Shown piece by piece: positions 3,341 to 64,000 of a stretch of 64,000 nucleotides of DNA. Position 1 is the first letter of the stretch. Each line of letters starts with the position of its first letter. The translations under genes and the position numbers were made by a program. Below the pieces are notes generated by a model. The model had not been told where the DNA came from. It saw nothing but the letters and a program-made list of their open reading frames with translations, and did not search any database. The stretch lies in NCBI GenBank assembly GCA_964584805.1, contig CAZPAY010000003.1:1889-65888 (forward strand), in the 5' to 3' direction. Source of the DNA: an uncultured Planctomycetales bacterium (GTDB lineage: Bacteria > Planctomycetota > UBA1135).

Positions 3341-4568
3341 ACCCTCTAGTTTTCGCTTCCAACTCGGCCTGCTGGTTTGTCTTTTGACGAGCTTGCAGGC
3401 CGAGCCTCTATTTGCTTCCCAAGACAAGACAGATGTAATTGGGCCTGACCCCTATACAGAAGAAGACCCTGCTCTCATGGAAGCGGCTGGCATCGTTTCC
3501 TTCGCACCATTCGCTTTTATCGGGCAACAGAAGACCGAAAAAATCGAATTGGTATTGGGCAACATCGAACTTCTTTGGGTAGAAACAGAGCATTTCCGCA
3601 TTGGTTCTTCACTCCCAAAGACATCGCTTGGCGCGAGCCAAAAAGACAAAAAGGCGATGCTTCAAGAAATCAAAGAGCTACGCAAGTTGTTGCCCAACAT
3701 TCCGAAAAAGCCAAAGAAGCTTGACCCTTGGCTGCGCGTACACCTCTATGCCAGCCGTCTCGAAAAACTTTACCAAGACATTTCCAACCGTCTTGATGTG
3801 CCGCCTGGTTATTGGCCAACGGCTCCCGCCCAGCTTCCTGGAAACGAATACCGTGGTGAAGGGCCCTATCTAGGCATGCAGGACAAATTCACGATTCTGC
3901 TACTCGAAAAGCAAAGCGGCATTTCGCGCTTCGGATCTGCCTTCGCCGGTACCGACCCCAAAGGCCCGCTTGCATGGTGTTTCGGAAAAGAGGGCACACT
4001 CTTCTTCGGGACGGCCTGCGAAGAAGCGGAAAAGACTTTTTACAACGATGCCTTAATGCACGCCCATGTTACTTTTCATGTGACACGCAACATTATTGGT
4101 GGCATTAAGCATTATGGCTTTAACCCCCCATTTTGGTGGCATGAGGGGCTGGCACATTGGTATGCCAGGCGTGTCAATCCAGACTCCAACAATTTTTCAA
4201 AAGTAAACGATGGCGATGTCGACCTCCGCGATGAAACCAACTGGGAGCCCAAAATCCGTGCTCGCGTTAAACACAAGTACTTCCCCACAGCAGAGCAACT
4301 CATCACTCGCGAAGACTGGACAGGAGTCACTTTCACGGAGACCATGATGATGTGGTCCCGCGTCGACTACCTCATGTCTTTAGGCGATGCAGGCTTCTCC
4401 ACTTTCATGCTCGGCGTTTCAGGCCGCATTAACGATGAGATTAACCCAAGCCACGCAACCATGGTCAACGCCCAAAGCAAGCTCCTCGATAAAGCGTGGC
4501 GATTGAGCTATACAAGTTTTGACGAAAAGTGGGCCAAGTGGGTTTTGAAAAACTACTCAAAAAGATAA
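3294..4568 (+). CDS. secreted hypothetical protein, tentatively peptidase-MA-like / DUF1570-like
   Basis: Signal-like segment FRFQLGLLVCLLTSLQA. WWHEGLAHWY resembles the EGLAxY motif of MA-clan-like domains. Overlaps the previous gene by 47 nt, so the start is uncertain. Confidence 0.5.
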   Translation: MFPNSSLPLSRKLLSKPSSFRFQLGLLVCLLTSLQAEPLFASQDKTDVIGPDPYTEEDPALMEAAGIVSFAPFAFIGQQKTEKIELVLGNIELLWVETEHFRIGSSLPKTSLGASQKDKKAMLQEIKELRKLLPNIPKKPKKLDPWLRVHLYASRLEKLYQDISNRLDVPPGYWPTAPAQLPGNEYRGEGPYLGMQDKFTILLLEKQSGISRFGSAFAGTDPKGPLAWCFGKEGTLFFGTACEEAEKTFYNDALMHAHVTFHVTRNIIGGIKHYGFNPPFWWHEGLAHWYARRVNPDSNNFSKVNDGDVDLRDETNWEPKIRARVKHKYFPTAEQLITREDWTGVTFTETMMMWSRVDYLMSLGDAGFSTFMLGVSGRINDEINPSHATMVNAQSKLLDKAWRLSYTSFDEKWAKWVLKNYSKR

Positions 4569-12838: not shown

Positions 12839-13375
12839 ATGAGCGATTTCAAAACCCGACTCGATTACAACGACTTCCTGCGTGATGTACCTGACTTCCC
12901 TAAGCCAGGGATTTTATTTAAAGACATCACTCCGCTGCTGTCGGCGCCAGCCGCATTTGGCGCGAGCATTGCTGATTTGTGTGACTTAGCTGCGCAATAT
13001 CAGCCCACACATATCGCCGGCATTGAATCGCGTGGATTCTTGTTTGGTGCGCCGATGGCTCAACAAATGGGGATTTCATTCATCCCCGTGCGGAAGCCCG
13101 GCAAATTGCCCTGGGACACCTATTCTTGCGAATACGAGCTGGAATACGGCAAGAACACACTCGAATTGCATACCGATGCTTCGGCTGCGGGCGATCGCGT
13201 CTTGCTCATCGACGACCTTTTGGCAACGGGCGGCTCGGCGGATGCCGCAATTCAGTTATTGCGGAAAACCGGCGCTGAAATCGTTGCGGCTCTTTTTGTA
13301 GTTGAGCTTGATTTCCTCAACGGCCGTGAAAAACTCCACGGCACGCTGGTCACGAGCCTGGTGCATGTTTCTTAA
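12839..13375 (+). CDS. apt: adenine phosphoribosyltransferase
   Basis: FPKPGILFKDITPLL and the PRPP motif VLLIDDLLATGGS. Confidence 0.93.
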   Translation: MSDFKTRLDYNDFLRDVPDFPKPGILFKDITPLLSAPAAFGASIADLCDLAAQYQPTHIAGIESRGFLFGAPMAQQMGISFIPVRKPGKLPWDTYSCEYELEYGKNTLELHTDASAAGDRVLLIDDLLATGGSADAAIQLLRKTGAEIVAALFVVELDFLNGREKLHGTLVTSLVHVS

Positions 13376-16543: not shown

Positions 16544-18349
16544 ATGACCAAAAACTACCCGCCTGAGCGCATCCGGAACTTTTCCATCATTGCGCACATT
16601 GACCACGGCAAGTCGACACTTGCCGACCGGTTTTTGGATATTGCCACCCCAGATGATGGGCGTAAAAAGCAAGAGCAGCGGCTTGATTCAATGGATTTAG
16701 AGCGCGAGCGCGGCATCACGATTAAGGCAGCCGCGGTTTCACTTGAGTTAAAGATTAAGGGTGAGGATTACTTGCTCAATATGATCGACACGCCGGGGCA
16801 TGTTGACTTTGCTTATGAAGTCGAGAAATCACTTCAAGCCTGCGAGGGCGCGCTGTTGCTGATTGACGCGGCTCAAGGCATCCAAGCGCAGACCGTGGCC
16901 AATACGATGTTGGCGCTTGAGCAAGATATGGAGGTCATGCCGATTTTCAACAAAATCGACCTCCCCCACGCGCGACCCGACGAAATTGCCGAAGAGCTTG
17001 AGCATGTTTTGCTCGTTGAGAGGGAAGGCGTCTTAAATTGCTCCGCTAAAACCGGCGAAGGCGTACCTGAAATTATTGATGAGATTGTTGAGCGCATCCC
17101 CGCCCCCGCGGGTGACAAAAACGCGCCACTGCAAGCTTTGATTTTCGACGCGACATACGATGAATACCGCGGTGTCATTGTGTATTTGCGTGTGATTAAT
17201 GGGGTCATCCGCAAGCGCGACATGGTGCATATGATTGGCGCAAAAGCCGATTATGAGGTGCTTGAGCTGGGGCGTTACACGCCTGAGCCCGTCCCTTGCC
17301 AAGAGCTGCACCCCGGCGAAGTTGGTTATCTGATTTCAAATATCAAAGAGCTCGGCGATGTGCGCGTGGGCGACACCGTCACGGTTAGTAAAGGTGAGCA
17401 GGCTAAATCTCTCGAGGGTTATCGCGAGCCGGTGCCGATGGTTTGGTGCGGCATCTACCCTGTGCAGTCCAAAGATTTCGAAGATTTGCGCACAGCATTA
17501 AATACGCTCAAGCTTAATGATTCCTCTATCATTTTTGAGCCCGAGACTTCTGAGGCTTTGGGGTTTGGTTTCCGTTGTGGTTTCCTTGGCTTGCTGCATA
17601 TGGAGATCGCCCAAGAGCGACTTGAGCGCGAAAGTGGGATCGATATCGTGCAAACCGCCCCGACGGTGCCGTATCAAATTTTGATGACCGATAGCTCGAC
17701 GCGTGACATCCACTGCCCGGGTGATTTGCCTGACCCAACGCAATACAACGAAGTCCGCGAGCCGATTGTGACCTCACATATTTTGGTTCCGACCGAGTCG
17801 ATTGGCCCGATTATGTCGCTTTGTTCTGAGCGACGCGGTGTGTTTTTGAAGCAAGAGCATTTGTCGGCCAATCGCGTGATGCTCACTTGGGATTTGCCCC
17901 TCGCTGAAGTGATTTATGATTTCTACGACAAGTTGAAATCCGGCACAAAGGGTTATGGCACGATGAATTTCGACGAGCCACGATTCCAATCGGCCAACTT
18001 GGTCAAGATGCGTATCTTGGTCAATGAAGTTGAAGCAGATGCTTTGAGTGTGATTTGCCATGCCGATGACGCCCAGCGCCGCGGCCGTGCTGTTTTGCAG
18101 GTCTTGCGTAAAGAAATTCCGCGACATCAATTTAAAGTGCCTTTGCAAGCTGCCGTTGGTGGCAAGATTTTGGCGCGCGAAACGATTAGTGCATTAAGTA
18201 AAAATGTTACGGCCAAATGCTATGGCGGCGACATCACGCGCAAGCGCAAGTTGCTCGAAAAGCAAAAAGAAGGCAAAAAGCGGATGAAGTCCATCGGCTC
18301 GGTCGAAGTGCCGCAAAAGGCCTTTTTGGCTGTATTGCGTACCGATTAG
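16544..18349 (+). CDS. lepA: translation elongation factor 4
   Basis: IRNFSIIAHIDHGKSTLADR, DTPGHVDF and the LepA-specific C-terminus; 601 aa. Confidence 0.97.
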   Translation: MTKNYPPERIRNFSIIAHIDHGKSTLADRFLDIATPDDGRKKQEQRLDSMDLERERGITIKAAAVSLELKIKGEDYLLNMIDTPGHVDFAYEVEKSLQACEGALLLIDAAQGIQAQTVANTMLALEQDMEVMPIFNKIDLPHARPDEIAEELEHVLLVEREGVLNCSAKTGEGVPEIIDEIVERIPAPAGDKNAPLQALIFDATYDEYRGVIVYLRVINGVIRKRDMVHMIGAKADYEVLELGRYTPEPVPCQELHPGEVGYLISNIKELGDVRVGDTVTVSKGEQAKSLEGYREPVPMVWCGIYPVQSKDFEDLRTALNTLKLNDSSIIFEPETSEALGFGFRCGFLGLLHMEIAQERLERESGIDIVQTAPTVPYQILMTDSSTRDIHCPGDLPDPTQYNEVREPIVTSHILVPTESIGPIMSLCSERRGVFLKQEHLSANRVMLTWDLPLAEVIYDFYDKLKSGTKGYGTMNFDEPRFQSANLVKMRILVNEVEADALSVICHADDAQRRGRAVLQVLRKEIPRHQFKVPLQAAVGGKILARETISALSKNVTAKCYGGDITRKRKLLEKQKEGKKRMKSIGSVEVPQKAFLAVLRTD

Positions 18350-51892: not shown

Positions 51893-54800
51893 GTGCCCCC
51901 CATGATTGCCGCTCTTCTTACATTCAGCCTTAGCCTCCCCCTCCTCAACGCAATTCCTGCGCCCGCCGCCGGCATCTTCCAACAAGATGCCGGTGACCCG
52001 TCGCCCGAAGTCATTGCTCTCCGCGTCGCTCGCAATGCCGTCGCGATGGGCAAGCCCGATCTTGCCATCGAGCGCTATGAGGAATTACTTGCCAAGTTCC
52101 CTGACTCTGTCGACGCCAAAGCAGAATATGCTGGTGTTCTTACGAGCCAGAAAAAATTTCGCAGCGCCAAGAAGATTCTCGAAGGGCTCATTCATGAATA
52201 CCCTGAATCGCCTCGCTTCCGCCTCTCGCTGACTGATATTTTTCTGCAGTTGCACGAGTTTGACAAGGCGTCCGAGCAACTCAACTTCATTCTTGCGGCC
52301 AATCCTGGCAATGTTGACGCGGCAATTAAGCTCGCGCGAATCCATGCTTGGGCAAAAGATTTTGATGCAGCCGCCGAGGTCTATCGCACTTACTTACGCA
52401 AACTCGACCCTGGCGACCCTCAGGTGCAAGCCATGCTCGCACCACTTTTGCTTGACACAGAAAGACCTGCCGAAGCCCTCCCGCTCCTGCAAGGCTTAGT
52501 CGACAATGACCCCGAAAACATCTCCCTCCTTGCTGACTTAGCGCGCGCGCAGACCATGTTGGGCAATCACCGCGAGGCCAATGCTATTGTGAGTGATCTC
52601 CAGGGGCTCGACCAAAGCAATGCCGGCACGCGCATTGCGCTTTCGGATTTCTTGCGCAACTCGGGCAACTTCCGCGGCGCAATTGAATTGCTTGATCAAG
52701 TCCTGGCATATGACAGTGCCGATCTCGATGCGAAGTACGCGAGTGCTCGTTTGCACCTTGACGCGTACATGCCTCATAAGGCTTTGCGTATTTTAAGCGA
52801 CAAGGCCTTCGACAAAAATTCTATCGAGTACCTCGGTGTCCTAGCGAGCCACCACACGCTGCTCGGTGAATATGCACATGCTCGTGAGGTCTACCGCAAA
52901 ATCCTGAGCATCGACGAGCAAAACAATGAAGCACGCCTCAGCATGGGGCGACTGCTTGCCGAGTCAGGCCAGGCCCAAGCTGCAAAAGCTGAATATCGCA
53001 AAGTGAGCGCTTCCTCCAGCGCGGGTCGTCAAGCCGCTCTAGGGATTGCGCAAACACTTGCCACAGAGCACCGATATGACGACTCCAACGCACACTGCCG
53101 CCGCTTGATGAGCGACGAAACCGACCATCGCCCTATTGTCATGTACATCAAAAACCTGCTCGCCGTGGGTGAAACCAACGAGGCGGAGACGATGGCCATG
53201 CGCTACCTTAGCGAGCAAAGCAGCGACACTTACGGCTCGCTCATGGTTCGCACCGCATTGGCGGATGCGCTCCTTGCAGATGGCCAGGCTCTTCGCGCTC
53301 AAAACCTTTATGAAGAGGTCTTGAGCGACCCCATTGGCTCTTTGATTCCTGAAGCGATTTTCGGCCGCGCAATGTCTATCATGCGCTTATCAGAGAATAG
53401 TGGTGCAGAAAACGCCATGCTCAACGCAAGCATTTCTGGCATGGGTGGCGACTTCCGCTTGCTCATACGCCTCGGCGAAATCGCCTCGGCCAACAGCCAA
53501 TACTTACTCGCGGCAGCCATGTTTGAGCAAGTCCTGAGCTGGGATTCGGGCAACCTGCCTGCTTTGATTCGACACGCAGAAGCCTTGGCATCTGAGCGCG
53601 ACAGCGTCTTGGCGATGCAATCCCAAACTGAATTCGAGAAAGTCTTGCGCCAGGCTGGCTCAAGCATTCGCGCACGCATGGGCCTTGCCCGTACATTTGG
53701 TGCACTGCAACAATTCGACGAGTCAATCAAGCAATACGACCTTGTGTTGCAACATGACCCCAGCTATGTCGTTGCCCTTCGCGAAAAAGCCCGGGTTTAT
53801 TCTTGGGCCCAGAAAAATGATGAGGCCGAAAGAATCTACTGGGAGTTACAACACCCCGGCCCTCGCACGGAACTTCCTGGAGTGACTAACCTTGAGCACG
53901 CGCAGCTCGATAATGCCGCACGCTCTGAAGTGGAAGCCTCAACAAAACTTGAGCAGCGCGCCAAAGCTTTTGGCGGCGACTTGGCTTTTTACAGTGCCAT
54001 CCCTGTCTTGCGTAGCTTGGTCAACGCCGAGCCGGGCAACCTCGAAGCACGCTTTGATTTGGGCCTTGCCTACAGTCAAACCGGCCAGACCAGCCTAGCT
54101 ATCGCCGAGTTTGAAAAACTTCTCAAGCTTAGCCCCAAGCATAGAGAGGCGCTGATTGCTCTCAACGGTAATTTCCAAGAGCGCAAACCGCGCTTCTACG
54201 CCGAGCTCGACATGCTCAGCCGCAAGTCAAAAGGCACAACGATTGGCAGTGGTGCTGGCCTTGACATCCGTGGCCTTACCTTTGGCACGACGGTCCCCTG
54301 GGGTGAACGCGATGAGTTCGTGGATGTTTCCTATACGAATTACGATTTAACCCCCACAGGTAAAGGCATCAGCGGCGGCTTCACTGGCAATGTTCTGAGT
54401 GTTGGCGCTCAAAAGTCCCCCGCATCTTCGCTTGGGCAGTGGAAACAAATGCTCTTCCATGGGCAGCTCAATCTTGAGAGCTATGTTGACGAACTCGACA
54501 CCAATGTCACCTGGGATGCCGGCCTAAAAGCTGCAATTTCAGACAAATCCGATTTGTTTGCTCGTGCATTCCAAGAAAATGTCATCGAGAACCAAAACTC
54601 GCTGATGACAGGCGCCGATCACCAGTCAGTCGTTACCACTTGGGAGACAGAAACTGGTCGCACCACAACAGCCACAGGCCCCGTCTCACGCACAGGCATC
54701 CAAGCGGGCCTTTCCTTCCGCCCTACGCGCGAGATTTCCTTCAACGGCAGCATCACCAGTGCAAGTTACAGCGATGGCAATGCCCTCACTCAAATCTATG

Positions 54801-55195
54801 CCACAGGTGATTTGGCGCTAACCAAAGCCCCTCAACAGTTCAAAGTTGGGCTCATCTTCCACAGCATGGATTTCGACGAAGTCACCCGGGATGATTATCT
54901 CAATGAGATGGGCCCGGTTCGCTATTTCGCTCCAAACGGCTACAGCATGTATGGCGCCGCTGCAAAATACCGCCAATGGCTCAGCCAAGACATGTTTCCG
55001 GGCGCGCCACAGACTTGGTATCAAGCAAGCCTCACGCAACTTTGGGATTCCGAAGGCGAGCCTTTCTCTAACATGAAAATAGAGTTCCACCACGATCTCA
55101 AAGCGGGCAGCGGCATCAATCTTCGTGCCGATATGCTTGATTCAGCGTTCTACGACAGCACGCAATTTGTGTTTGCGTTTAGCACGACCTTTTAG
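51893..55195 (+). CDS. TPR-repeat protein with C-terminal beta-barrel-like domain (BcsC/PgaA-type exopolysaccharide exporter candidate)
   Basis: A signal peptide, about 750 aa of TPR-like helical repeats, then about 340 aa of alternating-pattern beta-rich sequence ending ...FVFAFSTTF (terminal Phe, an OMP signature). The start is the GTG at 51893 or the ATG at 51902. Confidence 0.65.
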   Translation: MPPMIAALLTFSLSLPLLNAIPAPAAGIFQQDAGDPSPEVIALRVARNAVAMGKPDLAIERYEELLAKFPDSVDAKAEYAGVLTSQKKFRSAKKILEGLIHEYPESPRFRLSLTDIFLQLHEFDKASEQLNFILAANPGNVDAAIKLARIHAWAKDFDAAAEVYRTYLRKLDPGDPQVQAMLAPLLLDTERPAEALPLLQGLVDNDPENISLLADLARAQTMLGNHREANAIVSDLQGLDQSNAGTRIALSDFLRNSGNFRGAIELLDQVLAYDSADLDAKYASARLHLDAYMPHKALRILSDKAFDKNSIEYLGVLASHHTLLGEYAHAREVYRKILSIDEQNNEARLSMGRLLAESGQAQAAKAEYRKVSASSSAGRQAALGIAQTLATEHRYDDSNAHCRRLMSDETDHRPIVMYIKNLLAVGETNEAETMAMRYLSEQSSDTYGSLMVRTALADALLADGQALRAQNLYEEVLSDPIGSLIPEAIFGRAMSIMRLSENSGAENAMLNASISGMGGDFRLLIRLGEIASANSQYLLAAAMFEQVLSWDSGNLPALIRHAEALASERDSVLAMQSQTEFEKVLRQAGSSIRARMGLARTFGALQQFDESIKQYDLVLQHDPSYVVALREKARVYSWAQKNDEAERIYWELQHPGPRTELPGVTNLEHAQLDNAARSEVEASTKLEQRAKAFGGDLAFYSAIPVLRSLVNAEPGNLEARFDLGLAYSQTGQTSLAIAEFEKLLKLSPKHREALIALNGNFQERKPRFYAELDMLSRKSKGTTIGSGAGLDIRGLTFGTTVPWGERDEFVDVSYTNYDLTPTGKGISGGFTGNVLSVGAQKSPASSLGQWKQMLFHGQLNLESYVDELDTNVTWDAGLKAAISDKSDLFARAFQENVIENQNSLMTGADHQSVVTTWETETGRTTTATGPVSRTGIQAGLSFRPTREISFNGSITSASYSDGNALTQIYATGDLALTKAPQQFKVGLIFHSMDFDEVTRDDYLNEMGPVRYFAPNGYSMYGAAAKYRQWLSQDMFPGAPQTWYQASLTQLWDSEGEPFSNMKIEFHHDLKAGSGINLRADMLDSAFYDSTQFVFAFSTTF

Positions 55196-55228
55196 AAGTA
55201 CGATAAACCAACCAGTCTAGCCGGTCGC

Positions 55229-58200
55229 TCAATCTAACAACATTTGATAGTGGCGATCGGCCTCTTCGTACTTACCCATATCTGACAACAAGTCAGCGAG
55301 CTGCATACGAGAGCCACGGCGGGCTGGATCAAGTTTCAAGGCCTCGGTCAAAAGCACCATGGCTTTTTTCTTTTCGCCTATGTTTTGCATAACCGAACCA
55401 AGCAGAGCAGAAAATGATGCGTCTTGATAGTTTTGGCGCTTTGCTTCCTCTTCGATGTGAGTGACCGTCGCACGCTGCTCACGGCTGAGGTTTGACATAC
55501 CGACAGCAGCACTCAAGTAGCCCATCCAGTAAGAGCGGTGCATGATGTCGCCGTCGACCAACTCTTGATACTTCAGCAAAGCCAAAGCGTAGTTGCCGTC
55601 CCAGAGAGCGAGCTCGGCTTGACGGGCATCCATCTGACCGTCTTCAGGGTAAGTTAGTGCAATTTGCTCATAAACTTCGGCCGCTTCTTTGTAGCGCCTC
55701 TGCCAGGTCAACACCTGTGCCAGCAAATGCATTGCATCTTCGTGTTCTGGCTCAAGCTCAAGAGTAATGCGGCATTCCGTCTCTGCTGAGGCAAAATCTT
55801 CCCGTGAGTTATGAATCGAAGCCAAAAGCATGTGCATACCTGGGCTCGATTCGCTGGCTTGGTAAATCGCAATAGCCTCGTCGAGATGGCCACCCGCCAA
55901 AAGTGCAGCGGCGTGCTCGTCAAGGATGACATCGTCTTGGTAGCCGGCATCTTTTAGTTTGGCAAAGTAGGCCAAACTTTCTTCGACACGACCTGCGTTA
56001 AAGTAATTGCGTGCGCCAGAGAGCAGCACATTACGCCGCGGCACGACTTCGTTAACCAAGTCTTTATCCAACTCGCCTAAGACAAACTGGAAGGTGTCAT
56101 CGGCCTCGTCAACTCGCTGGAATGCAGCGTGTGAATTACCGAGGGCAAAAATCAAGCCTAAGTTGTCAGGCTCTATTTCAAGCATCCGGCGAATTAGATC
56201 TTCAACTTCTTGGCGACGCCCTTCGCGCAGCAAAATATCAGACAGCATATCGAGCTGCTTCATTTTGGGGTCACCCGAAAGTGCACCCTCGTAAATTTCC
56301 TCCACGCGTACCAAATCAGCGCGTGAAAGAACGATGTCTTCGCTTGCCGACAACAAGAAAATGTCGTCCGTATTTACGGTGCGGAATAGAACCAGGCCAC
56401 CAGGGATCAACACCATCGCAGACAAAAGGCCGACTGCAACCGGCTGAAAGATTGGCGTCTTCTGCTCTTGGTTGCGTGCAATCAGTGCATTTTCGATTCG
56501 CTTTTCTTCGATAGGCGAAAGCAAATCGTAAAGCATGCCGCGGCCTTGATCGACGAATGAGATGTACTCAAGCACATACTCGTACAGCTTCAATGAGCCG
56601 AACTCTTTCTCAGACGAACGCAAGATTTTTACCTGCCCTTCGACTCGACCCAAAGGCGACGGCATTACGAATGGGTATTGCGCGCCATCTTCAAGTTGCT
56701 GAGGCAACAAAACGCGTAATGCCTTTCGGCTAATGTCTTCAGTAACCGTTCGGACAGATGGGCCAGGCTCGCCTTCAACTTGACTCGGCAGGACCAATTC
56801 AACGGGTAGGCGGTAGCGTTTGCGCTCTTCAAGGCGACGCTTCCATGTTAAAAGATGCGCCACGCGGTGAGCCAGCTTGCGCATCTTCGAGCGTCGGGAA
56901 CTGAACCATTGGTAGGTCATTGGAACCGCGTAGTTCAAGGCCAAGCTTGAGAGGGCATCAGCCGTTTCTGGCGTGAGCTCCAGAAACTCAATGCCATAAC
57001 GATAAGTGCCTTTCTTGGCAGTGTCACGTTGTGAGCTTTCTTCACCAATCGCCAACTCCTTTGGAGCTGCAGCGTCACTATGGCGAATAGCGCCGCGCAA
57101 TCGATAGCGCTTGCCGTCTGCCGACAAGAACAGATCACCTTCAGAGTCAATCGGTAACGGCTCGTAGGTAATCAGCCCGATGCCGTATTCACTAAAGTCA
57201 CTTGACATACCCATGCCAGTAATCGTCCCGTGCTCTTGATCATCAAAAGTGAATTCAACGGGCAAGACCGCCTTGTGACGATACGAGAATCGCTTGGTTT
57301 CTTGAGCGAGTGAACGACGCAATACCATCCATGCCAGAACGATGTGATAGAGCACGAGAGGTGCGGCAATCGCTGGGCCAATGAAATCGTAAGTCGTATG
57401 AAAAATCATACGGAAGCTTGCCCAGGCAAGTGCGACAATGCCGAATCCAATCACCCAGATTTGCGGCATAATGTACTTCAACAAAGTTGAGCCAGCCTGA
57501 CGGCCACCACGCTTACTGGTCACGACAAACTTAGATTCTTTGCGCTTAAAGATGCCACGCATACAGCCTTTAATGCTCGTCCAGAAGGTCATCATGGCAA
57601 ACAACTCCATATTGAACAGAGCCGCGTTCTTTCCACTCACAAGGCGCATGGCCAAGTGCGTAATGAAAAGATAACTCAATAGCATCGCGATAATCCAGAC
57701 CTTGATTTCGGTGAATGGCGCGACGCCAGTCAACAGAAGCAGGATTGGTGTTGCGTAAACGGCGAGGCGTGTGAAACCGGAGAACCAATGAAAAATGGAC
57801 GCCCAATAGGAAATGCGTTGCGTCAAGCTCAGACCCCGCATCGTGAGCGGGTTGTCATGGAACAAGATCGACACATTTCCCTCACCCCAACGCAAGCGTT
57901 GAGTGTGGAATGTTGTTACATCGGGCGCGGCTTGGCCAGCGATGAGTCGCTCGGTGACGGAAATTGACTTCCACCCCTTAGCGGCCATACGCAGACCGGT
58001 GTGCATGTCTTCGGTAATCGTCTCAACCGCAAACAAGCCCACATCATCGAGTGCTGTGCGACGGAACATCGCAGCTGAACCCGCAAAGACCACCGCATTC
58101 CAGCGGTTTTTACCGGGCTGGAGGTTGTGATAGAAGAGAAGACCTTCCTCCCAATACTGCTGCTTGTCGTAATCGCAAGCGGCTTGGAAGTTTTCAAAGT

Positions 58201-58777
58201 TGTAAAAATCGTGCGGGCTTTGGACGAAACCTACTTTGGGGTCTCGGAAGTAGCCCAGCAACCGCGTAATCATATGCTTCACTGGCACATGGTCTGCGTC
58301 GAGCACAATGACATATTCGCCATCAAGTTGCTCAAGGGCATTATTCATATTGCCCGCTTTAGCGTGCTGATTGTCATCACGCTTGATGTACATCGCGCCT
58401 AACTCATCGGCGAGTTCAGCAACTTCAGGTCGCCGACCGTCGTCTAAGACAACGGTGCGGTGTGGGTAATCCATTGCAAGCGCCGCCTGGACGGTACCGC
58501 GCAAAAGCAAAACATCTTCGTTATAGGTCGGAATCAGGACATCAACTGTTAAGCCTTCTTCTGGCTCAAGCTGATCAGGCTCTGCAACATCCCATACATT
58601 AAAGAAGTAGAGGATCATCTGGAAGCCTCCCAGAATCTCAGCCGAATAGAGCAGCCAAGAAGCAAATGTCGAATAAACCGACTCGAGATTTAGAGTGAAA
58701 ATGCCACGAAAAACAAGATACACGATGGTCATTCCCATCGCGAGTATCATCAGCAGCTTTCGGAGGCTATTTGGCAT
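55229..58777 (-). CDS. cellulose-synthase-like family 2 glycosyltransferase with two PilZ domains and C-terminal TPR domain
   Basis: HAKAGNMNNAL, VLDADHV, GSAAMFRR, TEDMHTGLRM and QRLRWGEG (QxxRW). PilZ motifs are RFSYR...DFSEYG and RKRYR...DISRKA. A late TM helix (VAVGLLSAMVLIPGGLVLF) is followed by about 350 aa of TPR. Confidence 0.85.
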   Translation of the reverse strand: MPNSLRKLLMILAMGMTIVYLVFRGIFTLNLESVYSTFASWLLYSAEILGGFQMILYFFNVWDVAEPDQLEPEEGLTVDVLIPTYNEDVLLLRGTVQAALAMDYPHRTVVLDDGRRPEVAELADELGAMYIKRDDNQHAKAGNMNNALEQLDGEYVIVLDADHVPVKHMITRLLGYFRDPKVGFVQSPHDFYNFENFQAACDYDKQQYWEEGLLFYHNLQPGKNRWNAVVFAGSAAMFRRTALDDVGLFAVETITEDMHTGLRMAAKGWKSISVTERLIAGQAAPDVTTFHTQRLRWGEGNVSILFHDNPLTMRGLSLTQRISYWASIFHWFSGFTRLAVYATPILLLLTGVAPFTEIKVWIIAMLLSYLFITHLAMRLVSGKNAALFNMELFAMMTFWTSIKGCMRGIFKRKESKFVVTSKRGGRQAGSTLLKYIMPQIWVIGFGIVALAWASFRMIFHTTYDFIGPAIAAPLVLYHIVLAWMVLRRSLAQETKRFSYRHKAVLPVEFTFDDQEHGTITGMGMSSDFSEYGIGLITYEPLPIDSEGDLFLSADGKRYRLRGAIRHSDAAAPKELAIGEESSQRDTAKKGTYRYGIEFLELTPETADALSSLALNYAVPMTYQWFSSRRSKMRKLAHRVAHLLTWKRRLEERKRYRLPVELVLPSQVEGEPGPSVRTVTEDISRKALRVLLPQQLEDGAQYPFVMPSPLGRVEGQVKILRSSEKEFGSLKLYEYVLEYISFVDQGRGMLYDLLSPIEEKRIENALIARNQEQKTPIFQPVAVGLLSAMVLIPGGLVLFRTVNTDDIFLLSASEDIVLSRADLVRVEEIYEGALSGDPKMKQLDMLSDILLREGRRQEVEDLIRRMLEIEPDNLGLIFALGNSHAAFQRVDEADDTFQFVLGELDKDLVNEVVPRRNVLLSGARNYFNAGRVEESLAYFAKLKDAGYQDDVILDEHAAALLAGGHLDEAIAIYQASESSPGMHMLLASIHNSREDFASAETECRITLELEPEHEDAMHLLAQVLTWQRRYKEAAEVYEQIALTYPEDGQMDARQAELALWDGNYALALLKYQELVDGDIMHRSYWMGYLSAAVGMSNLSREQRATVTHIEEEAKRQNYQDASFSALLGSVMQNIGEKKKAMVLLTEALKLDPARRGSRMQLADLLSDMGKYEEADRHYQMLLD

Positions 58778-58944
58778 TTCGAATTAACCCATCGGCTCCA
58801 TCTGCGCCAAACTTAAGGCGAAAGGAGGATTTGGGGGGAGGGGAGGTCGAGATGTGAAACAAAGCAAACACCAGAAATCATTTCCAGTTTCCTAGGATAG
58901 CACGGAAAGCGTCGTGCGGAAGGTTAATATGCGAGAAGTTGCAA

Positions 58945-60066
58945 CTAATCGCGCCCCATCAACCAGCCCAACTGAGCGGGTGCATGAGTGAAGGCTCGAT
59001 TTGGCTGGATAGACAGCGGATACGGCCCCCACCACTCGCCTGCGGCCCAATAACAACCCTGGACATAAGAGGCATCCATTTGTTGCAAGGCCCTATCGAG
59101 CACAACTCGCCAGCCCGGGTTGGTATTCGGCACACCAAACTCGCCAATAAAGGCATTGACCTTGTTTTTGCCACACCAGGCCAAAAATGGCTTAAGTCGC
59201 TGGGCTCCTCGGTCGCGTAATTGAGGATCACGGGCAAGCTCTTCTTCCCAAGACCAGCGATATTGACCACTGCCATCTGCGTCAAAATAGGCGTGTGCTT
59301 CGTAGGCAATTTGCCCCAAGGGATCATGAATCCAGCTCTTTGCCCCGTTGGCGCGCACCCAGCGTTCGCTAGATGACCAATCAAGCCCAGGTATGAGCAA
59401 AAGCGTGGAATGACCCTCTTCACGCATGCGATTCACCACATGCTGAGTCGCTGACTGCCAGGACGAGCGTCTGATGTTGTGAGGCTCATTCATCAAGCCG
59501 TAAGCCCACGGGCTGGCCTCCGCCTGAGAAAAAGCTTGGCCTATCTTGACCCACAAGTCAGCGAAATCCTCTTGGGAGACCAAAACTCTACCACCATAAG
59601 CGTGGCCAATCGTCGCCTCGATGATGAGCTCGCCTTCTTGGAGGAAGTAGCGACCATAGTTGTGGCAATCGAGGATGGCTCGCCCACCGGCTTCATGAAT
59701 CCATTGCACATTTTCCCGGAGAGCAAGCAATTCAGCGCTATCTAGCGGGCCACCCAACTTAGGCTGGAGACGCTCCCAGCGAAACGGGATACGGAAAAGG
59801 CTAACACCTTGGCCTGCAAACCAATCAATTGTGCGCTTTGAATTATAAATATAAGATGAGCCCAAGCCCCCGTGATTAAGATTCGAAAACCCGTCTACAT
59901 CACTTGCGAATTCCGCTCCGGCTAGAGAGACCCCGCGCACTGGGCCACTGTAATTCGCGTCAGGGATTTCGTCACTGCATGAGGAACAAACCAAACCTAT
60001 CGCCATAACCATTGCAGGTAGAAAAACACGGAAGCCACTTCTTAAGAAAAGCATAAGCGGAAGCAT
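58945..60066 (-). CDS. glycoside hydrolase family 5 (endoglucanase-like) lipoprotein
   Basis: RIPFRWERLQP, DCHNYGRY, LMNEPH (acid/base), HAYFD, IGEFG (nucleophile) and WAAGEWW. Lipobox-like GLVCSSC. Confidence 0.85.
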   Translation of the reverse strand: MLPLMLFLRSGFRVFLPAMVMAIGLVCSSCSDEIPDANYSGPVRGVSLAGAEFASDVDGFSNLNHGGLGSSYIYNSKRTIDWFAGQGVSLFRIPFRWERLQPKLGGPLDSAELLALRENVQWIHEAGGRAILDCHNYGRYFLQEGELIIEATIGHAYGGRVLVSQEDFADLWVKIGQAFSQAEASPWAYGLMNEPHNIRRSSWQSATQHVVNRMREEGHSTLLLIPGLDWSSSERWVRANGAKSWIHDPLGQIAYEAHAYFDADGSGQYRWSWEEELARDPQLRDRGAQRLKPFLAWCGKNKVNAFIGEFGVPNTNPGWRVVLDRALQQMDASYVQGCYWAAGEWWGPYPLSIQPNRAFTHAPAQLGWLMGRD

Positions 60067-60949: not shown

Positions 60950-62281
60950 TTACCCGCCGATCAGATGGCTTGCTTTCTGTCTTTCGTCACTTGCTTGATC
61001 CTTGGCGGCGACATCAGCAAGTTGTTGGTACAAATCGGCCATTGCGCTCGACCCAATTCCTCGGAATAGCTTTGCCATACCTGCGTAGTCACGCACACGA
61101 CGCACCAGCCGACGGCCAAAAGACAAGCGCGAGCCGGATGGATCTCGTGGGTTTAATGTGCTCAGTAATCGCACATCGCGCAAAATAGCACCAATCTTTT
61201 CGGGGCCTTTATAAACCACGCGCAAGTTACCCATGGAGTCGAGCAACAAACTCGTCGGCAAAGGGGCTCCGTTATAGCGGCCGACAATTTCACCGAGAAG
61301 GATCTCAAGTGAATTCATGAAAGCGTCATCGGCGTATCCCGCATTTTTATCTAACCCGAAATGCGCGACAATTTTTTTCGCTTGTTCGTGCTTGTCAAAT
61401 GAATCGGTGCAAAGAGTGATGATGCGCAAACCTAGCTTGTCAATTTTTTCCTTGCGATCCTGAAAACCCTCAAACTCATTTAAACAAGAAGCGCAGGTCG
61501 TCCCCCAGAGATTAATGAGTGTGGGCGCACCAGCGACATCGTCGACTCGGCGTTTCTTATTTTCAAACGAAGGGATGCCAAGGGGCGCAAGAGGGATGGC
61601 CTCTGTCAAGACGATACGCGAAACCATACGGCCTGCATCTGACTTGACGCCTGTCGGAGCAGAAGCCAACTCAACATGTGTTTGTGGCTCGATACTCACG
61701 GCAACGCCCGCGCCCTGAACAAGAGAGTAGCGATTGTTCATACGGCAACCCGTAAATGATTCGGACTCGCCGCTGGGCCAGCGTACAACGACACTTTCGA
61801 TTGCACTTTCTTTCCCCAAACTAAAGAGCATGGTCTTCGATGACTGAGAGAGAAAACTCTCTCCAGCGTAAACCGTGCGGGTAAAGATTTTGCCGCTAGC
61901 GGTGCTAAGCGTTACGCGCGCGCCGATGGCATCGCGGTTGGCGCTAACCCCCTGCATGCGCAGTTTTAACCAATGCGTATCAGGGCCGTTTCCGCGCATC
62001 AAACGGATACGCGGTGCAGTGCGAAAGCGAAGTAAGACATCGGCGTGGCCATCGTCATCCCAATCGATGTCGGCCACAGATCGGCCATCGCCCTTGAAAG
62101 CGGCATCCGTACAAGAGGACATGTCTGCGAATTTATTATCGCCTAAGTTAAGGAAGACGCGGTTGGATTCGCGACCCGACCAACTCGCACCTTCATGCCG
62201 GACGAGGTATTGAATACTTGACCAAGCGTTACGGTAATTCTCAGGTGCTTCATCCGATTCGGCAGGAGATTGCGACGTCAC
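60950..62281 (-). CDS. UnbV/ASPIC domain + TlpA-like thioredoxin domain (CxxC); probably the C-terminal part of a TGA-recoded protein continuing from 62300..63988
   Basis: DIDWDDDGHADVLL (last FG-GAP repeat), LKLRMQGVSANRDAIGARV...VVRWPSG (UnbV_ASPIC pattern) and NLWGTTCASC (redoxin motif). The called GTG start has no SD. Confidence 0.7.
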   Translation of the reverse strand: MTSQSPAESDEAPENYRNAWSSIQYLVRHEGASWSGRESNRVFLNLGDNKFADMSSCTDAAFKGDGRSVADIDWDDDGHADVLLRFRTAPRIRLMRGNGPDTHWLKLRMQGVSANRDAIGARVTLSTASGKIFTRTVYAGESFLSQSSKTMLFSLGKESAIESVVVRWPSGESESFTGCRMNNRYSLVQGAGVAVSIEPQTHVELASAPTGVKSDAGRMVSRIVLTEAIPLAPLGIPSFENKKRRVDDVAGAPTLINLWGTTCASCLNEFEGFQDRKEKIDKLGLRIITLCTDSFDKHEQAKKIVAHFGLDKNAGYADDAFMNSLEILLGEIVGRYNGAPLPTSLLLDSMGNLRVVYKGPEKIGAILRDVRLLSTLNPRDPSGSRLSFGRRLVRRVRDYAGMAKLFRGIGSSAMADLYQQLADVAAKDQASDERQKASHLIGG

Positions 62282-62288
62282 GCGTCGC
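62272..62288 (-). promoter_or_regulatory. SECIS-like hairpin downstream of TGA 62302..62300
   Basis: GCGACG-CGUGA-CGUCGC, starting exactly 11 nt after the TGA. The GTG start called for the downstream ORF lies in the loop. Confidence 0.4.
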
Positions 62289-62299
62289 CAGAAAAAACT

Positions 62300-63988
62300 T
62301 CATAAGTCGTGCGTGTCGGTGTTGGTGACAAAACCATTTGGTGAATAAATATCAGGCAAGCCATCGCCCGACAAATCGCCCATGCGCGCGCCCCAAGCCC
62401 ACCCACCCACGGCGATACCAGCATCTAAAGTGATGTCTTTGAAAGTGCCATCACCTAGATTTTCGAGCAGAGTATTTCCACGAGCATGGCGCAAATAATG
62501 CTCATGGACGGCCTCTTGCTTGCCTTTCATGAACTGGCCCGATTGCGGCACAATGCGCCGGCCTGCAGACGAAAACATATTGCTGATGTGGTAATCCATG
62601 TCGCCGTCGCCGTCGATATCGGCGGCGCTGATGCCCATCCCTGCGGCCAAATCACTTGCACCAATTTCGATTGCGATGTCACGGAATTTGCCGCCCTCAT
62701 TTTGATACAAATTATTGTGCCCGAAATCGTTTGTTACATATAAATCTAGATCGCCATCATCATCAAAATCTTCCCAAAGAGAGGAGAGCGAAAACTTGGT
62801 GTTGTTTTCATCCAAGCCAACCTCGGCTGTCGCGAGTGCAAATTTGCGGTCACCCAAATTCCTCCAGAACATGTTGGATGCGCCATTATTCGCATCGTGA
62901 TAGGGAGTTGGCACTCCGCCGATAAGCCCGCCAGCTGTGTAACGCACACCATACAAATCCAAGTCGCCGTCAAGGTCAATGTCGGCGGCGCTGAGTGAAT
63001 AGACCTCATCTTGCCCCTCACCTTGCACAGGTGTTAGGTCTGGAAAGTTGCCTGCTCCATCATTCCAGCAGACCATCAAATTTGCACCCACAGCGACAAC
63101 CAAGTCTTGATCGCCATCATTGTCTAAATCCAAAAACAAGGCGGAGCGTGAATTGTCTAAAAAACCGACCCCCGATGCCTGAGTCCTATCTCGCGCCCGG
63201 CCATCTTTACTGTGCATAAACAAACGATTAGGCAAACCACCTTGCTGGCAGACATATATATCATCACGACCGTCATTGTTAACATCGCCAACAGCGAACC
63301 CTTGGGCGCCGATGAATGAATTGCCAATCAGCCGATCGGTCATGTCCATATATTCATTCACACCGTGGAGATACTCCGCACGAAAATGCGCCATGTCGGC
63401 AAAAACCGCGCCAGTTACATCGGCCAGCAATGGCGCGCGTGTTTTCACCTCTTCATAAAATGAGGCACGCAGGGCAAACATACGGACGACCTTCTTGCCG
63501 CCTTCGCTGCGCACGCGCCACTCAACATTCCATTGGATGTTTTGCTGAAATCGGCCGCCCGTCGATGTTGGTGCCGAAAAATGCCCTAAAACCTCGGTCG
63601 AGAATAAATCATCATTGTGTACATCTACCGAAATGATTTTGACGAATGGATGTATTTCAACACCATCATCAAAAGGTGAGGTCAATGCTCGGCCTAACCC
63701 TGCAACGGCTTTGGCTGAATAAAGTTTGCCATCAAAACCACTCGCACGCTTGGCAACCGTAAAGCCATCATCAAGCAAAAGATCAAATTGCTTGGGGCGC
63801 AAAACCGTCATGCCGCTGAAATCTCTATCAAACAAATCACGCAGATGGTCAAAGCCGCGATGCGCAATTCCTTTGGCAAATTTCTTTATTTCAGCCTTGG
63901 CCAAATCATGCAAAACCTCACTTCCCCAACCATCAAACTCTGAGCTACGGCGTTTTCGATTGTCGAGCGCCCAACTTGGCAAATCCAT
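62300..63988 (-). CDS. FG-GAP/VCBS repeat protein (CRTAC1-like N-terminal part); ends in in-frame TGA
   Basis: Repeats GDVNNDGRDDIY, LDLDNDGDQDLV, ADIDLDGDLDLY, EDFDDDGDLDLY, ADIDGDGDMDYH and GDLSGDGLPDIY. The frame stays open upstream of the ATG at 63988 to the window edge, so the 5' end may lie outside. Confidence 0.75.
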   Translation of the reverse strand: MDLPSWALDNRKRRSSEFDGWGSEVLHDLAKAEIKKFAKGIAHRGFDHLRDLFDRDFSGMTVLRPKQFDLLLDDGFTVAKRASGFDGKLYSAKAVAGLGRALTSPFDDGVEIHPFVKIISVDVHNDDLFSTEVLGHFSAPTSTGGRFQQNIQWNVEWRVRSEGGKKVVRMFALRASFYEEVKTRAPLLADVTGAVFADMAHFRAEYLHGVNEYMDMTDRLIGNSFIGAQGFAVGDVNNDGRDDIYVCQQGGLPNRLFMHSKDGRARDRTQASGVGFLDNSRSALFLDLDNDGDQDLVVAVGANLMVCWNDGAGNFPDLTPVQGEGQDEVYSLSAADIDLDGDLDLYGVRYTAGGLIGGVPTPYHDANNGASNMFWRNLGDRKFALATAEVGLDENNTKFSLSSLWEDFDDDGDLDLYVTNDFGHNNLYQNEGGKFRDIAIEIGASDLAAGMGISAADIDGDGDMDYHISNMFSSAGRRIVPQSGQFMKGKQEAVHEHYLRHARGNTLLENLGDGTFKDITLDAGIAVGGWAWGARMGDLSGDGLPDIYSPNGFVTNTDTHDL

Positions 63989-64000
63989 GCCACGGTCTTG

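Follow-up and report, generated by a model that had tools for sequence, protein, structure and literature searches.

An in-frame UGA and a conserved SECIS-like hairpin inside a predicted exported FG-GAP/ASPIC protein point to a candidate selenoprotein family in three bacterial phyla

The 64,000-nt stretch analyzed here (contig CAZPAY010000003.1 of an uncultured Planctomycetales bacterium, positions 1,889 to 65,888; hereafter, the window) carries near its end, on the minus strand, two consecutive open reading frames (ORFs) that, judged from the sequence and its conservation, very probably encode one protein containing selenocysteine (Sec). The upstream ORF, 62300..63988, terminates at a TGA triplet. 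Past this triplet the same frame runs on unbroken, reading ...NGFVTNTDTHDL before the TGA and SFFWRRVTSQSPAESDE... after it, down to a TAA. ORF finders call the second part separately, as 60950..62281, starting at a GTG that is the seventh codon after the TGA; six codons (SFFWRR) lie in between, and no Shine-Dalgarno-like sequence is present for this start. A hairpin, GCGACG-CGUGA-CGUCGC, begins exactly 11 nt past the TGA and has a 6-bp stem and a 5-nt loop with the GTG inside it. The sequence facts stated in the original prediction, which proposed a selenoprotein of approximately 1000 amino acids, all hold (Table 1).

The frame stays open up to the window end; the real start lies beyond that end, 52 codons upstream of ATG 63988. 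It could be read on L084, a longer contig from the same organism, where the true N-terminus, MSPPGITTTLLFTATLYLTLC..., is signal-peptide-like. Hence, the full-length product would comprise about 1,064 amino acids. Upstream of the TGA, Pfam recognizes FG-GAP_3 (5 stretches, 125.9 bits) and FG-GAP. Downstream, it recognizes one more FG-GAP_3 repeat, then UnbV_ASPIC (68.6 bits) and AhpC-TSA/Redoxin (AhpC-TSA, 31.8 bits at a cut-off of 26); the FG-GAP_3 and UnbV_ASPIC scores both exceed the Pfam cut-offs. Thus, an FG-GAP repeat does precede UnbV in the downstream ORF, as had been suggested, and the TGA splits a beta-propeller domain. The last domain matches the TlpA structure 1jfu in PDB (E = 4.7e-7), with WGTTCASC aligned to WATWCVPC, in agreement with its earlier description as a TlpA-like CxxC domain. 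The scores of the NCBIfam TlpA/ResA equivalogs are far under their cut-offs, and TlpA/ResA membership is hence assigned at the domain level only. Apart from these sub-threshold scores, no NCBIfam family-level model matched either half, and a sequence search against PDB returned no solved structure for the propeller part.

Table 1. Coordinates of the candidate selenoprotein gene and its elements in the window
Feature	Position	Strand	Description or basis
5' coding part	62303..64000	(-)	N-terminal region of unknown fold and most FG-GAP/VCBS beta-propeller blades; leaves the window
True start with signal peptide	~156 nt beyond 63988	(-)	Read from L084
In-frame TGA, proposed Sec codon	62300..62302	(-)	Motif D-L-U-S-F-F-W-R, within the propeller domain
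Spacer between TGA and hairpin, 11 nt, AGUUUUUUCUG	62289..62299	(-)	Codes for S-F-F and the first two bases of W
SECIS-like hairpin	62272..62288	(-)	Minimum free energy fold, conservation, covariation
Hairpin stem GCGACG/CGUCGC	62288..62283 paired with 62277..62272	(-)	
Apical loop CGUGA, GU at loop positions 2-3	62282..62278	(-)	
GTG, called start, in the hairpin loop	62279..62281	(-)	ORF and gene finders
3' coding part including C-terminal tail	60950..62299	(-)	Pfam, NCBIfam, PDB match
Last FG-GAP blade	about 62033..62176	(-)	Pfam
UnbV_ASPIC domain	about 61727..61930	(-)	Pfam
TlpA/ResA-like thioredoxin-fold domain	about 61220..61567	(-)	Pfam, PDB TlpA/ResA match
WGTTCASC, CxxC motif of the TlpA-like domain	61484..61507	(-)	Cys codons 61495..61493 and 61486..61484
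Stop TAA	60952..60950	(-)	

The same gene pair, TGA included, is found on four independently assembled metagenome contigs that differ from the window by 0-2 mismatches across up to 3,039 nt compared. A scan of one genome per GTDB species yielded 595 relatives, of which the best 80 loci were kept; all 80 are from metagenome-assembled genomes (MAGs) of Planctomycetota, Verrucomicrobiota, and Acidobacteriota. The junction codon is TGA at 66 junctions in these loci, or 67 with the window, and TAA or TAG in none. It directly precedes a conserved S-[FVM]-[FY]-W-R, and the TGA-form junctions are always in frame with the UnbV/thioredoxin-like part. In the 14 TGA-less loci, the site is occupied by sense codons (GAG and GCC in four loci each; TCG, TAC, AAT, AAC, GAC, and CGG in one each). 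A protein query spanning the junction retrieved approximately 100 distinct homologues (57-71% identical), each covering exactly the first 47% of the query and hence ending at the same residue. All 26 aligned homologues (40-85% identical overall) end in ...DL, and most homologues have N-termini that are signal peptides or lipobox-like.

These data bear directly on two trivial explanations. TGA is a single base change away from many codons, and the window alone would be compatible with a pseudogene, a nonsense mutation of recent origin, or a fault of assembly in this genome. However, the TGA is identical in the four independent assemblies, which removes the concern about assembly, and it occupies the same codon at 66 junctions from three phyla with both halves conserved at the protein level. 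If TGA coded for a standard amino acid (Trp or Gly) in this lineage, the in-frame TGA itself would be accounted for and nothing more; the carriers come from three phyla that use the standard code. As the original prediction had noted, TGA is a genuine stop elsewhere in the window: it terminates 6 of the 38 open frames of at least 250 codons (TAA 19, TAG 13), being the rarest of the three stops. The window was also searched for further in-frame TGAs that have long flanks or a neighboring Cys, and none was convincing. Pseudogenization, assembly error, and code reassignment are therefore effectively excluded.

A true two-gene arrangement deserves more attention, as all gene callers and the NCBI/JGI annotations show two genes here, and most loci have an in-frame GTG or TTG 7-8 codons past the TGA. 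An ancestral gene would then have been split by a stop, with re-initiation at the loop GTG through translational coupling and non-covalent assembly of the halves. Yet nothing but TGA serves as the stop in 67 of 67 cases, and the two parts always share a frame. Residues D(-2), L(-1), S(+1), W(+4), and R(+5) around the TGA are invariant or nearly so, while their codons vary synonymously: after the TGA, Ser is encoded by AGT (42), AGC (21), or TCG (2), Phe by TTC or TTT, and Arg by CGG, CGA, CGT, or CGC, the Trp being invariant. The 6-7 codons that precede the GTG, including this switch between AGY and TCG serines, are thus conserved as protein although they lie 5' of the called start, and therefore must be translated. 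Moreover, in approximately 10 TGA loci the first in-frame ATG, GTG, or TTG appears only 13-69 codons past the TGA, a Shine-Dalgarno-like sequence is lacking, as originally remarked, and two separate genes would cut the set of propeller blades. Because the codons after the TGA are translated, starts are distant in these 10 or so loci, and the TGA lies inside the propeller, the two-gene reading is very unlikely. The GTG in turn is accounted for by the constraint on the loop and stem, and most likely is an internal Val codon in the hairpin loop rather than a start codon.

The hairpin is conserved together with the TGA. The spacing between them is 11 nt in all 65 TGA junctions scored; all six stem pairs are formed in 59 of these and five in the other six, and the loop conforms to NGUNN in 64, the commonest variants being GGUCG (46) and CGUGA (7). 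In contrast, only 1-5 of the six stem pairs can be formed in the 14 TGA-less homologues, although the peptides are similar. The stem shows compensatory changes. The closing pair (pair 6) is G-C in 16 sequences and A-U in 51, and pair 4 is A-U in 28, G.U in 30, C-G in 4, G-C in 2, and U.G in 1, with 3 mismatches. The partners of pair 4 are the synonymous third base of an Arg codon and the first base of a Ser, Ala, or Pro codon; the combination of CGC with TCG never occurs in TGA forms, whereas CGC is common in TGA-less homologues. The Ser codon within the stem is TCG in 58 of 60 sequences, while six codons are used for the Ser that follows two codons later and lies outside the hairpin.

In the alignment of 68 sequences, 97.3% of cells are paired compared to 91.9% in shuffled alignments (0/500 as high), and cells with double changes number 21 against 4.6 (again 0/500), while slid registers of the stem pair in only 13-70% of cells. 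RNAalifold independently predicted the top (apical) four pairs. Hence, the UGA, the frame, the downstream peptide, and the hairpin are conserved as a set in three phyla, and homologues without the UGA lack the hairpin.

We compared the hairpin with the published consensus for bacterial selenocysteine insertion sequences (bSECIS), which has a loop of 3-9 nt, an upper stem of 4-16 bp, a distance of 16-37 nt between the UGA and the loop, a minimum free energy of -7.5 kcal/mol or lower, and a G among the first two loop nucleotides, as a rule with G or U after it (PMC13188914). The window hairpin agrees with all four criteria of this model, having a 5-nt loop that carries G at position 2 and U after it, a 6-bp stem, 17 nt between the UGA and the loop, and a minimum free energy of -8.2 (hairpin alone) to -9.6 kcal/mol. 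So do the 65 TGA junctions scored. An Rfam scan of 62100..62450 at E <= 10 yielded no bacterial SECIS and only a chance snoRNA match.

One of the closest known elements is that of E. coli fdhF (NC_000913.3), where the UGA is followed by CACGGCCCAUC (11 nt) and GGUUGCAGGUCUGCACC (17 nt); in the commonest family variant, the UGA is followed by 11 nt and GCGGCAGGUCGUGUCGC. The two share the 11-nt spacing, a 17-nt stem-loop with GU in the apical loop, and the apex GCAGGUC, and in both the element lies within the coding sequence and also codes for conserved amino acids. The fdhF SECIS has a bulged U in its upper stem. The family stem, on the other hand, is a perfect 6-bp helix without a bulged U, the window loop is CGUGA and not GGUC, and the host protein is unrelated, being no molybdopterin enzyme. 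By analogy, the family element probably acts like the fdhF SECIS, yet it would not be a copy of it, as the bulged U is absent.

Several MAGs contain tandem or nearby paralogous copies of the family (L066:3398 and 7186; L058:50 and 7669; L028:4661 and 7645), each with a TGA and a hairpin of its own. In the L028:4661 copy, the stem is shifted and 7 bp long, the 4-nt loop reads GGUC, and the TGA is followed by the peptide SDLWRAVV.

A profile search of 1.84 billion representatives yielded 72 homologues that read through the junction with no stop at the site. The residue at the site in these representatives is Glu (25), Ser (12), Asp (11), Ala (9), Gln (5), Asn (4), Met (3), Arg (1), Thr (1), or Cys (1); Cys is thus found in 1 of 72 representatives, and in none of the 14 TGA-less loci. 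The sole Cys form (P0170, encoded at L088:205-3759) has TGC at the site, a signal peptide, a CxxC motif (WASWCEPC), C-terminal TPR repeats, and an intact hairpin, GCGCCA-GGUCG-UGGCGC. It looks like a recent Sec-to-Cys conversion, but is known from a single 3.8-kb contig, so that a sequencing error is possible.

Three TGA-less loci from Acidobacteriota (Polarisedimenticolia) retain the CxxC motif and have Ser, Tyr, or Ala in place of the TGA (L009:7753, TCG; L020:7618, TAC; L022:1774, GCC). In L009, five of six stem positions are still paired, and TCG is one base from TGA. This pattern suggests loss of Sec by replacement with Ser.

The presence of the TGA is associated with the CxxC motif of the thioredoxin-like domain. 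Both are found in 62 sequences, the TGA without CxxC in one (L061), CxxC without the TGA in three, and neither in 11 (Fisher test, 6e-10, phylogeny not being corrected for). The domain itself is found in TGA forms and TGA-less homologues alike, while the CxxC is almost confined to the former; among the 72 read-through representatives, the W..C..C motif is retained in only six, one being the Cys form. An additional Cys, in the context ERN-C or ERNx-C approximately 47 residues past the proposed Sec, occurs in 45 of 60 TGA forms but in none of 13 TGA-less ones. This residue, which may be a resolving cysteine, is missing from the clade of the window (L001, L002, L004, L005, and the window, the latter having R-V near 62155..62160).

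Two of the TGA-form loci are flanked by genes of other selenoprotein families. In L002, this is a TIGR01926 AhpD-like gene with CHY-U (147 bits at a cut-off of 81.8), and in L035, a thioredoxin-fold redoxin gene assigned to NF053656, 'TUGYCR motif (seleno)protein' (221 bits at a cut-off of 100). The latter, as a predicted selenoprotein gene, shows the Sec trait in that Planctomycetaceae MAG. The Sec decoding through an fdhF-like hairpin that was originally proposed is thus supported by the conserved TGA, the covarying hairpin, the agreement with the bSECIS criteria, the single Cys homologue, and nearby selenoprotein genes, and we infer that the inserted residue is Sec.

L002 is the Planctomycetales MAG closest to the window. 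Its AhpD-like gene (L002:4223-4756, plus strand), a 'peroxidase-related enzyme' from the catalogued selenoprotein family TIGR01926, follows the family gene by approximately 1 kb. Its TGA at 4469 corresponds to the second Cys of the CxxC (NGCHY-U-SVHH), and 13 nt past it there is a hairpin whose loop is GGUCU. In L035, the redoxin gene is on the minus strand, with the TGA at 12994 of the reverse-complemented locus falling exactly at the U of TUGYCR.

An explanation that dispenses with selenium is programmed read-through independent of a SECIS, with a near-cognate tRNA (Trp, Cys, or Arg) decoding the UGA while the hairpin slows termination, so that a short and a long isoform are produced. The TGA-less homologues tolerate many residues at the site, so that no particular chemistry seems required there; moreover, UGA-A is the usual context (66/68), and Sec machinery is absent from ~84 kb of the window organism. 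However, the hairpin has exactly the spacing, size, and loop GU of a SelB-binding SECIS and satisfies the bSECIS model, the TGA covaries with a redox CxxC, Cys is the only substitution within the hairpin-bearing clade, and carriers have other selenoprotein genes or full sets of sel genes. To our knowledge, there is no established bacterial mechanism of hairpin-stimulated UGA read-through of such a kind. We consider this explanation unlikely.

Several observations weigh against Sec at this position. Firstly, the near absence of Cys at the site is atypical for a catalytic Sec. Secondly, neither selA, selB, or selD nor a second selenoprotein gene was found in the ~84 kb formed by the window and 10 kb beyond each of its ends, which is only part of the genome. 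Thirdly, the hairpin is short (6 bp) and lacks the bulged U of fdhF, and the folding of the single sequence is not beyond chance (z = -0.85 to -1.46; 20-33 of 200 shuffles equally stable), so that it becomes significant only when other genomes are compared. In that comparison, part of the stem is also fixed by the conserved W and R residues, and hence not every stem pair is independent evidence. The loci themselves are related by descent, and the counts exceed the number of independent events. Finally, the TGA form L061:3236, which may be a copy in decay, has lost its CxxC (WDSSSTDS) and shows a U-U mismatch within the stem.

Searches for the decoding machinery gave the following results. ARAGORN found no tRNA-Sec in the window, in any of the loci, or in 10 kb beyond each window end. 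E. coli SelA, SelB, and SelD also served as tblastn queries against the window, the contig extensions, and the 80 loci; the sole match was to a LepA/EF4 GTPase domain. The gene in question, at 16544..18349 on the plus strand of the window, matched SelB weakly and was rejected as a candidate, being LepA/EF4 (TIGR01393, 871 bits).

If the UGA does encode Sec, the minus strand from 60950 to beyond 64000 would be one gene for an exported selenoprotein of ~1,064 amino acids, composed of a signal peptide, an N-terminal region, an FG-GAP beta-propeller, UnbV_ASPIC, and a TlpA-like thioredoxin-fold domain with CxxC. The UGA between propeller blades, in the motif DL-U-SFFWR, would be read by SelB.GTP.Sec-tRNA(Sec), and SelB would be recruited by the 17-nt hairpin 11 nt past the UGA, which has GU in its apical loop and is arranged like the minimal SECIS of E. 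coli fdhF. Where Sec is not inserted, translation would terminate, with the release of a truncated product of ~615 amino acids.

Because the CxxC survives almost only in UGA forms, we infer that Sec would cooperate with the TlpA-like CxxC in a redox role. A more specific proposal is that Sec does not stand in for a catalytic Cys but is a gain-of-function residue at a normally variable surface position of the CRTAC1-like propeller, and forms an intramolecular selenenylsulfide relay with the CxxC, in most members together with the extra Cys; this is possible, though rather doubtful. Such a relay would define a new class of exported redox enzymes, widespread in marine Planctomycetota and Verrucomicrobiota, which standard searches based on Sec/Cys homology would systematically have missed because it has almost no Cys homologues. 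Clustering of the ORFs from the 80 loci revealed only the family, its paralogues, and shadow ORFs, and no conserved partner gene.

CRTAC1/ASPIC-type proteins are secreted and have FG-GAP repeats followed by UnbV_ASPIC in one polypeptide, an architecture that the window protein shares only if the TGA is read through; it differs from them by the C-terminal TlpA-like domain and the in-frame Sec codon. Catalogued TlpA-like selenoprotein families resemble it in being redox proteins of Sec-using organisms, exported or periplasmic, that combine a TlpA-like thioredoxin fold with a motif of the CxxC type. Their Sec, however, is part of the thioredoxin active-site motif (UxxC, CxxU, UGC), whereas in the window protein this motif is an ordinary CxxC and the proposed Sec lies ~270 residues upstream, in the beta-propeller. 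The 119 prokaryotic selenoprotein families of the 2026 catalogue include no FG-GAP, VCBS, ASPIC, or CRTAC1 family, and no FG-GAP, VCBS, ASPIC, UnbV, or CRTAC1 selenoprotein is mentioned in the main text and supplements of deep-Sep or in the main texts of BSepDB and the 2026 review.

The only publication that we found to pair selenoproteins or selenocysteine with FG-GAP, VCBS, ASPIC, UnbV, or CRTAC1 is a supplementary table. Four split ASPIC/UnbV-FG-GAP pairs are listed there as selenoprotein candidates from two planctomycetes (P1 and P2) with full selA/B/C/D sets; bSECISearch was positive for three of the four, and the nearest full-length homologue has Gly at the aligned position (Kim et al., 2016, PLoS One, PMC4807772, Table S9). 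These candidates likely belong to the same family, compared by table description only, because they agree in the domain description, in an in-frame TGA that divides each of them into two adjacent annotated genes, and in an aligned residue other than Cys; the host phylum, Planctomycetes, is shared as well. They differ in being table rows with no analysis, and neither conservation in three phyla nor covariation of the hairpin, the CxxC link, or the Cys variant is reported for them. This listing, the non-Cys residues at the site, and the near confinement of CxxC to TGA forms were not foreseen in the original prediction. Sec recoding by an fdhF-like SECIS is a classical mechanism; as far as we found, the spread over three phyla, the evidence from covariation, the CxxC link, and the near absence of Cys homologues are new.

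If our reading is correct, hundreds of gene pairs in public genomes, now annotated as "VCBS/FG-GAP repeat protein" and "ASPIC/UnbV, AhpC-TSA protein," are halves of one large exported selenoprotein, the same arrangement being present in more than 60 uncultured marine and soil bacteria. Adding the family would mend annotation in three phyla and enlarge the selenoproteome of abundant marine bacteria of the Planctomycetes-Verrucomicrobia-Chlamydiae (PVC) group. It would also provide a clean example of a Sec site almost without Cys counterparts, which homology-based selenoprotein finders miss by design, as Cys homologues are nearly absent. The co-occurrence of Sec and CxxC offers a testable handle on the function of bacterial CRTAC1-like proteins.

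Beyond the window start, at a distance of 4-10 kb on the same contig, L089:217-5685 encodes a PsrABC-like operon (molybdopterin oxidoreductase, 4Fe-4S protein, and NrfD), followed by two adjacent YeeE/YedE (Sulf_transp) ORFs. YeeE/YedE is a catalogued selenoprotein family, and we considered this pair as a split selenoprotein; the candidate was rejected, as the ORFs overlap by 10 nt and are in different frames.

Within the window, the neighbors at 51893..60066 indicate an exopolysaccharide or cellulose context. The minus strand carries a GH5 cellulase-family ORF (58945..60066) and a gene for a GT2 cellulose-synthase-like protein with fused TPR repeats (55229..58777; TIGR03030, 380 bits, under the cut-off), and the plus strand encodes a TPR protein of 1,100 amino acids (51893..55195). 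The upstream neighbor of the family gene, just past the window end (L084:5869-9801), is an M60-like peptidase of 1,310 amino acids with the domains TCAF_N, M60-like_N, and Peptidase_M60.

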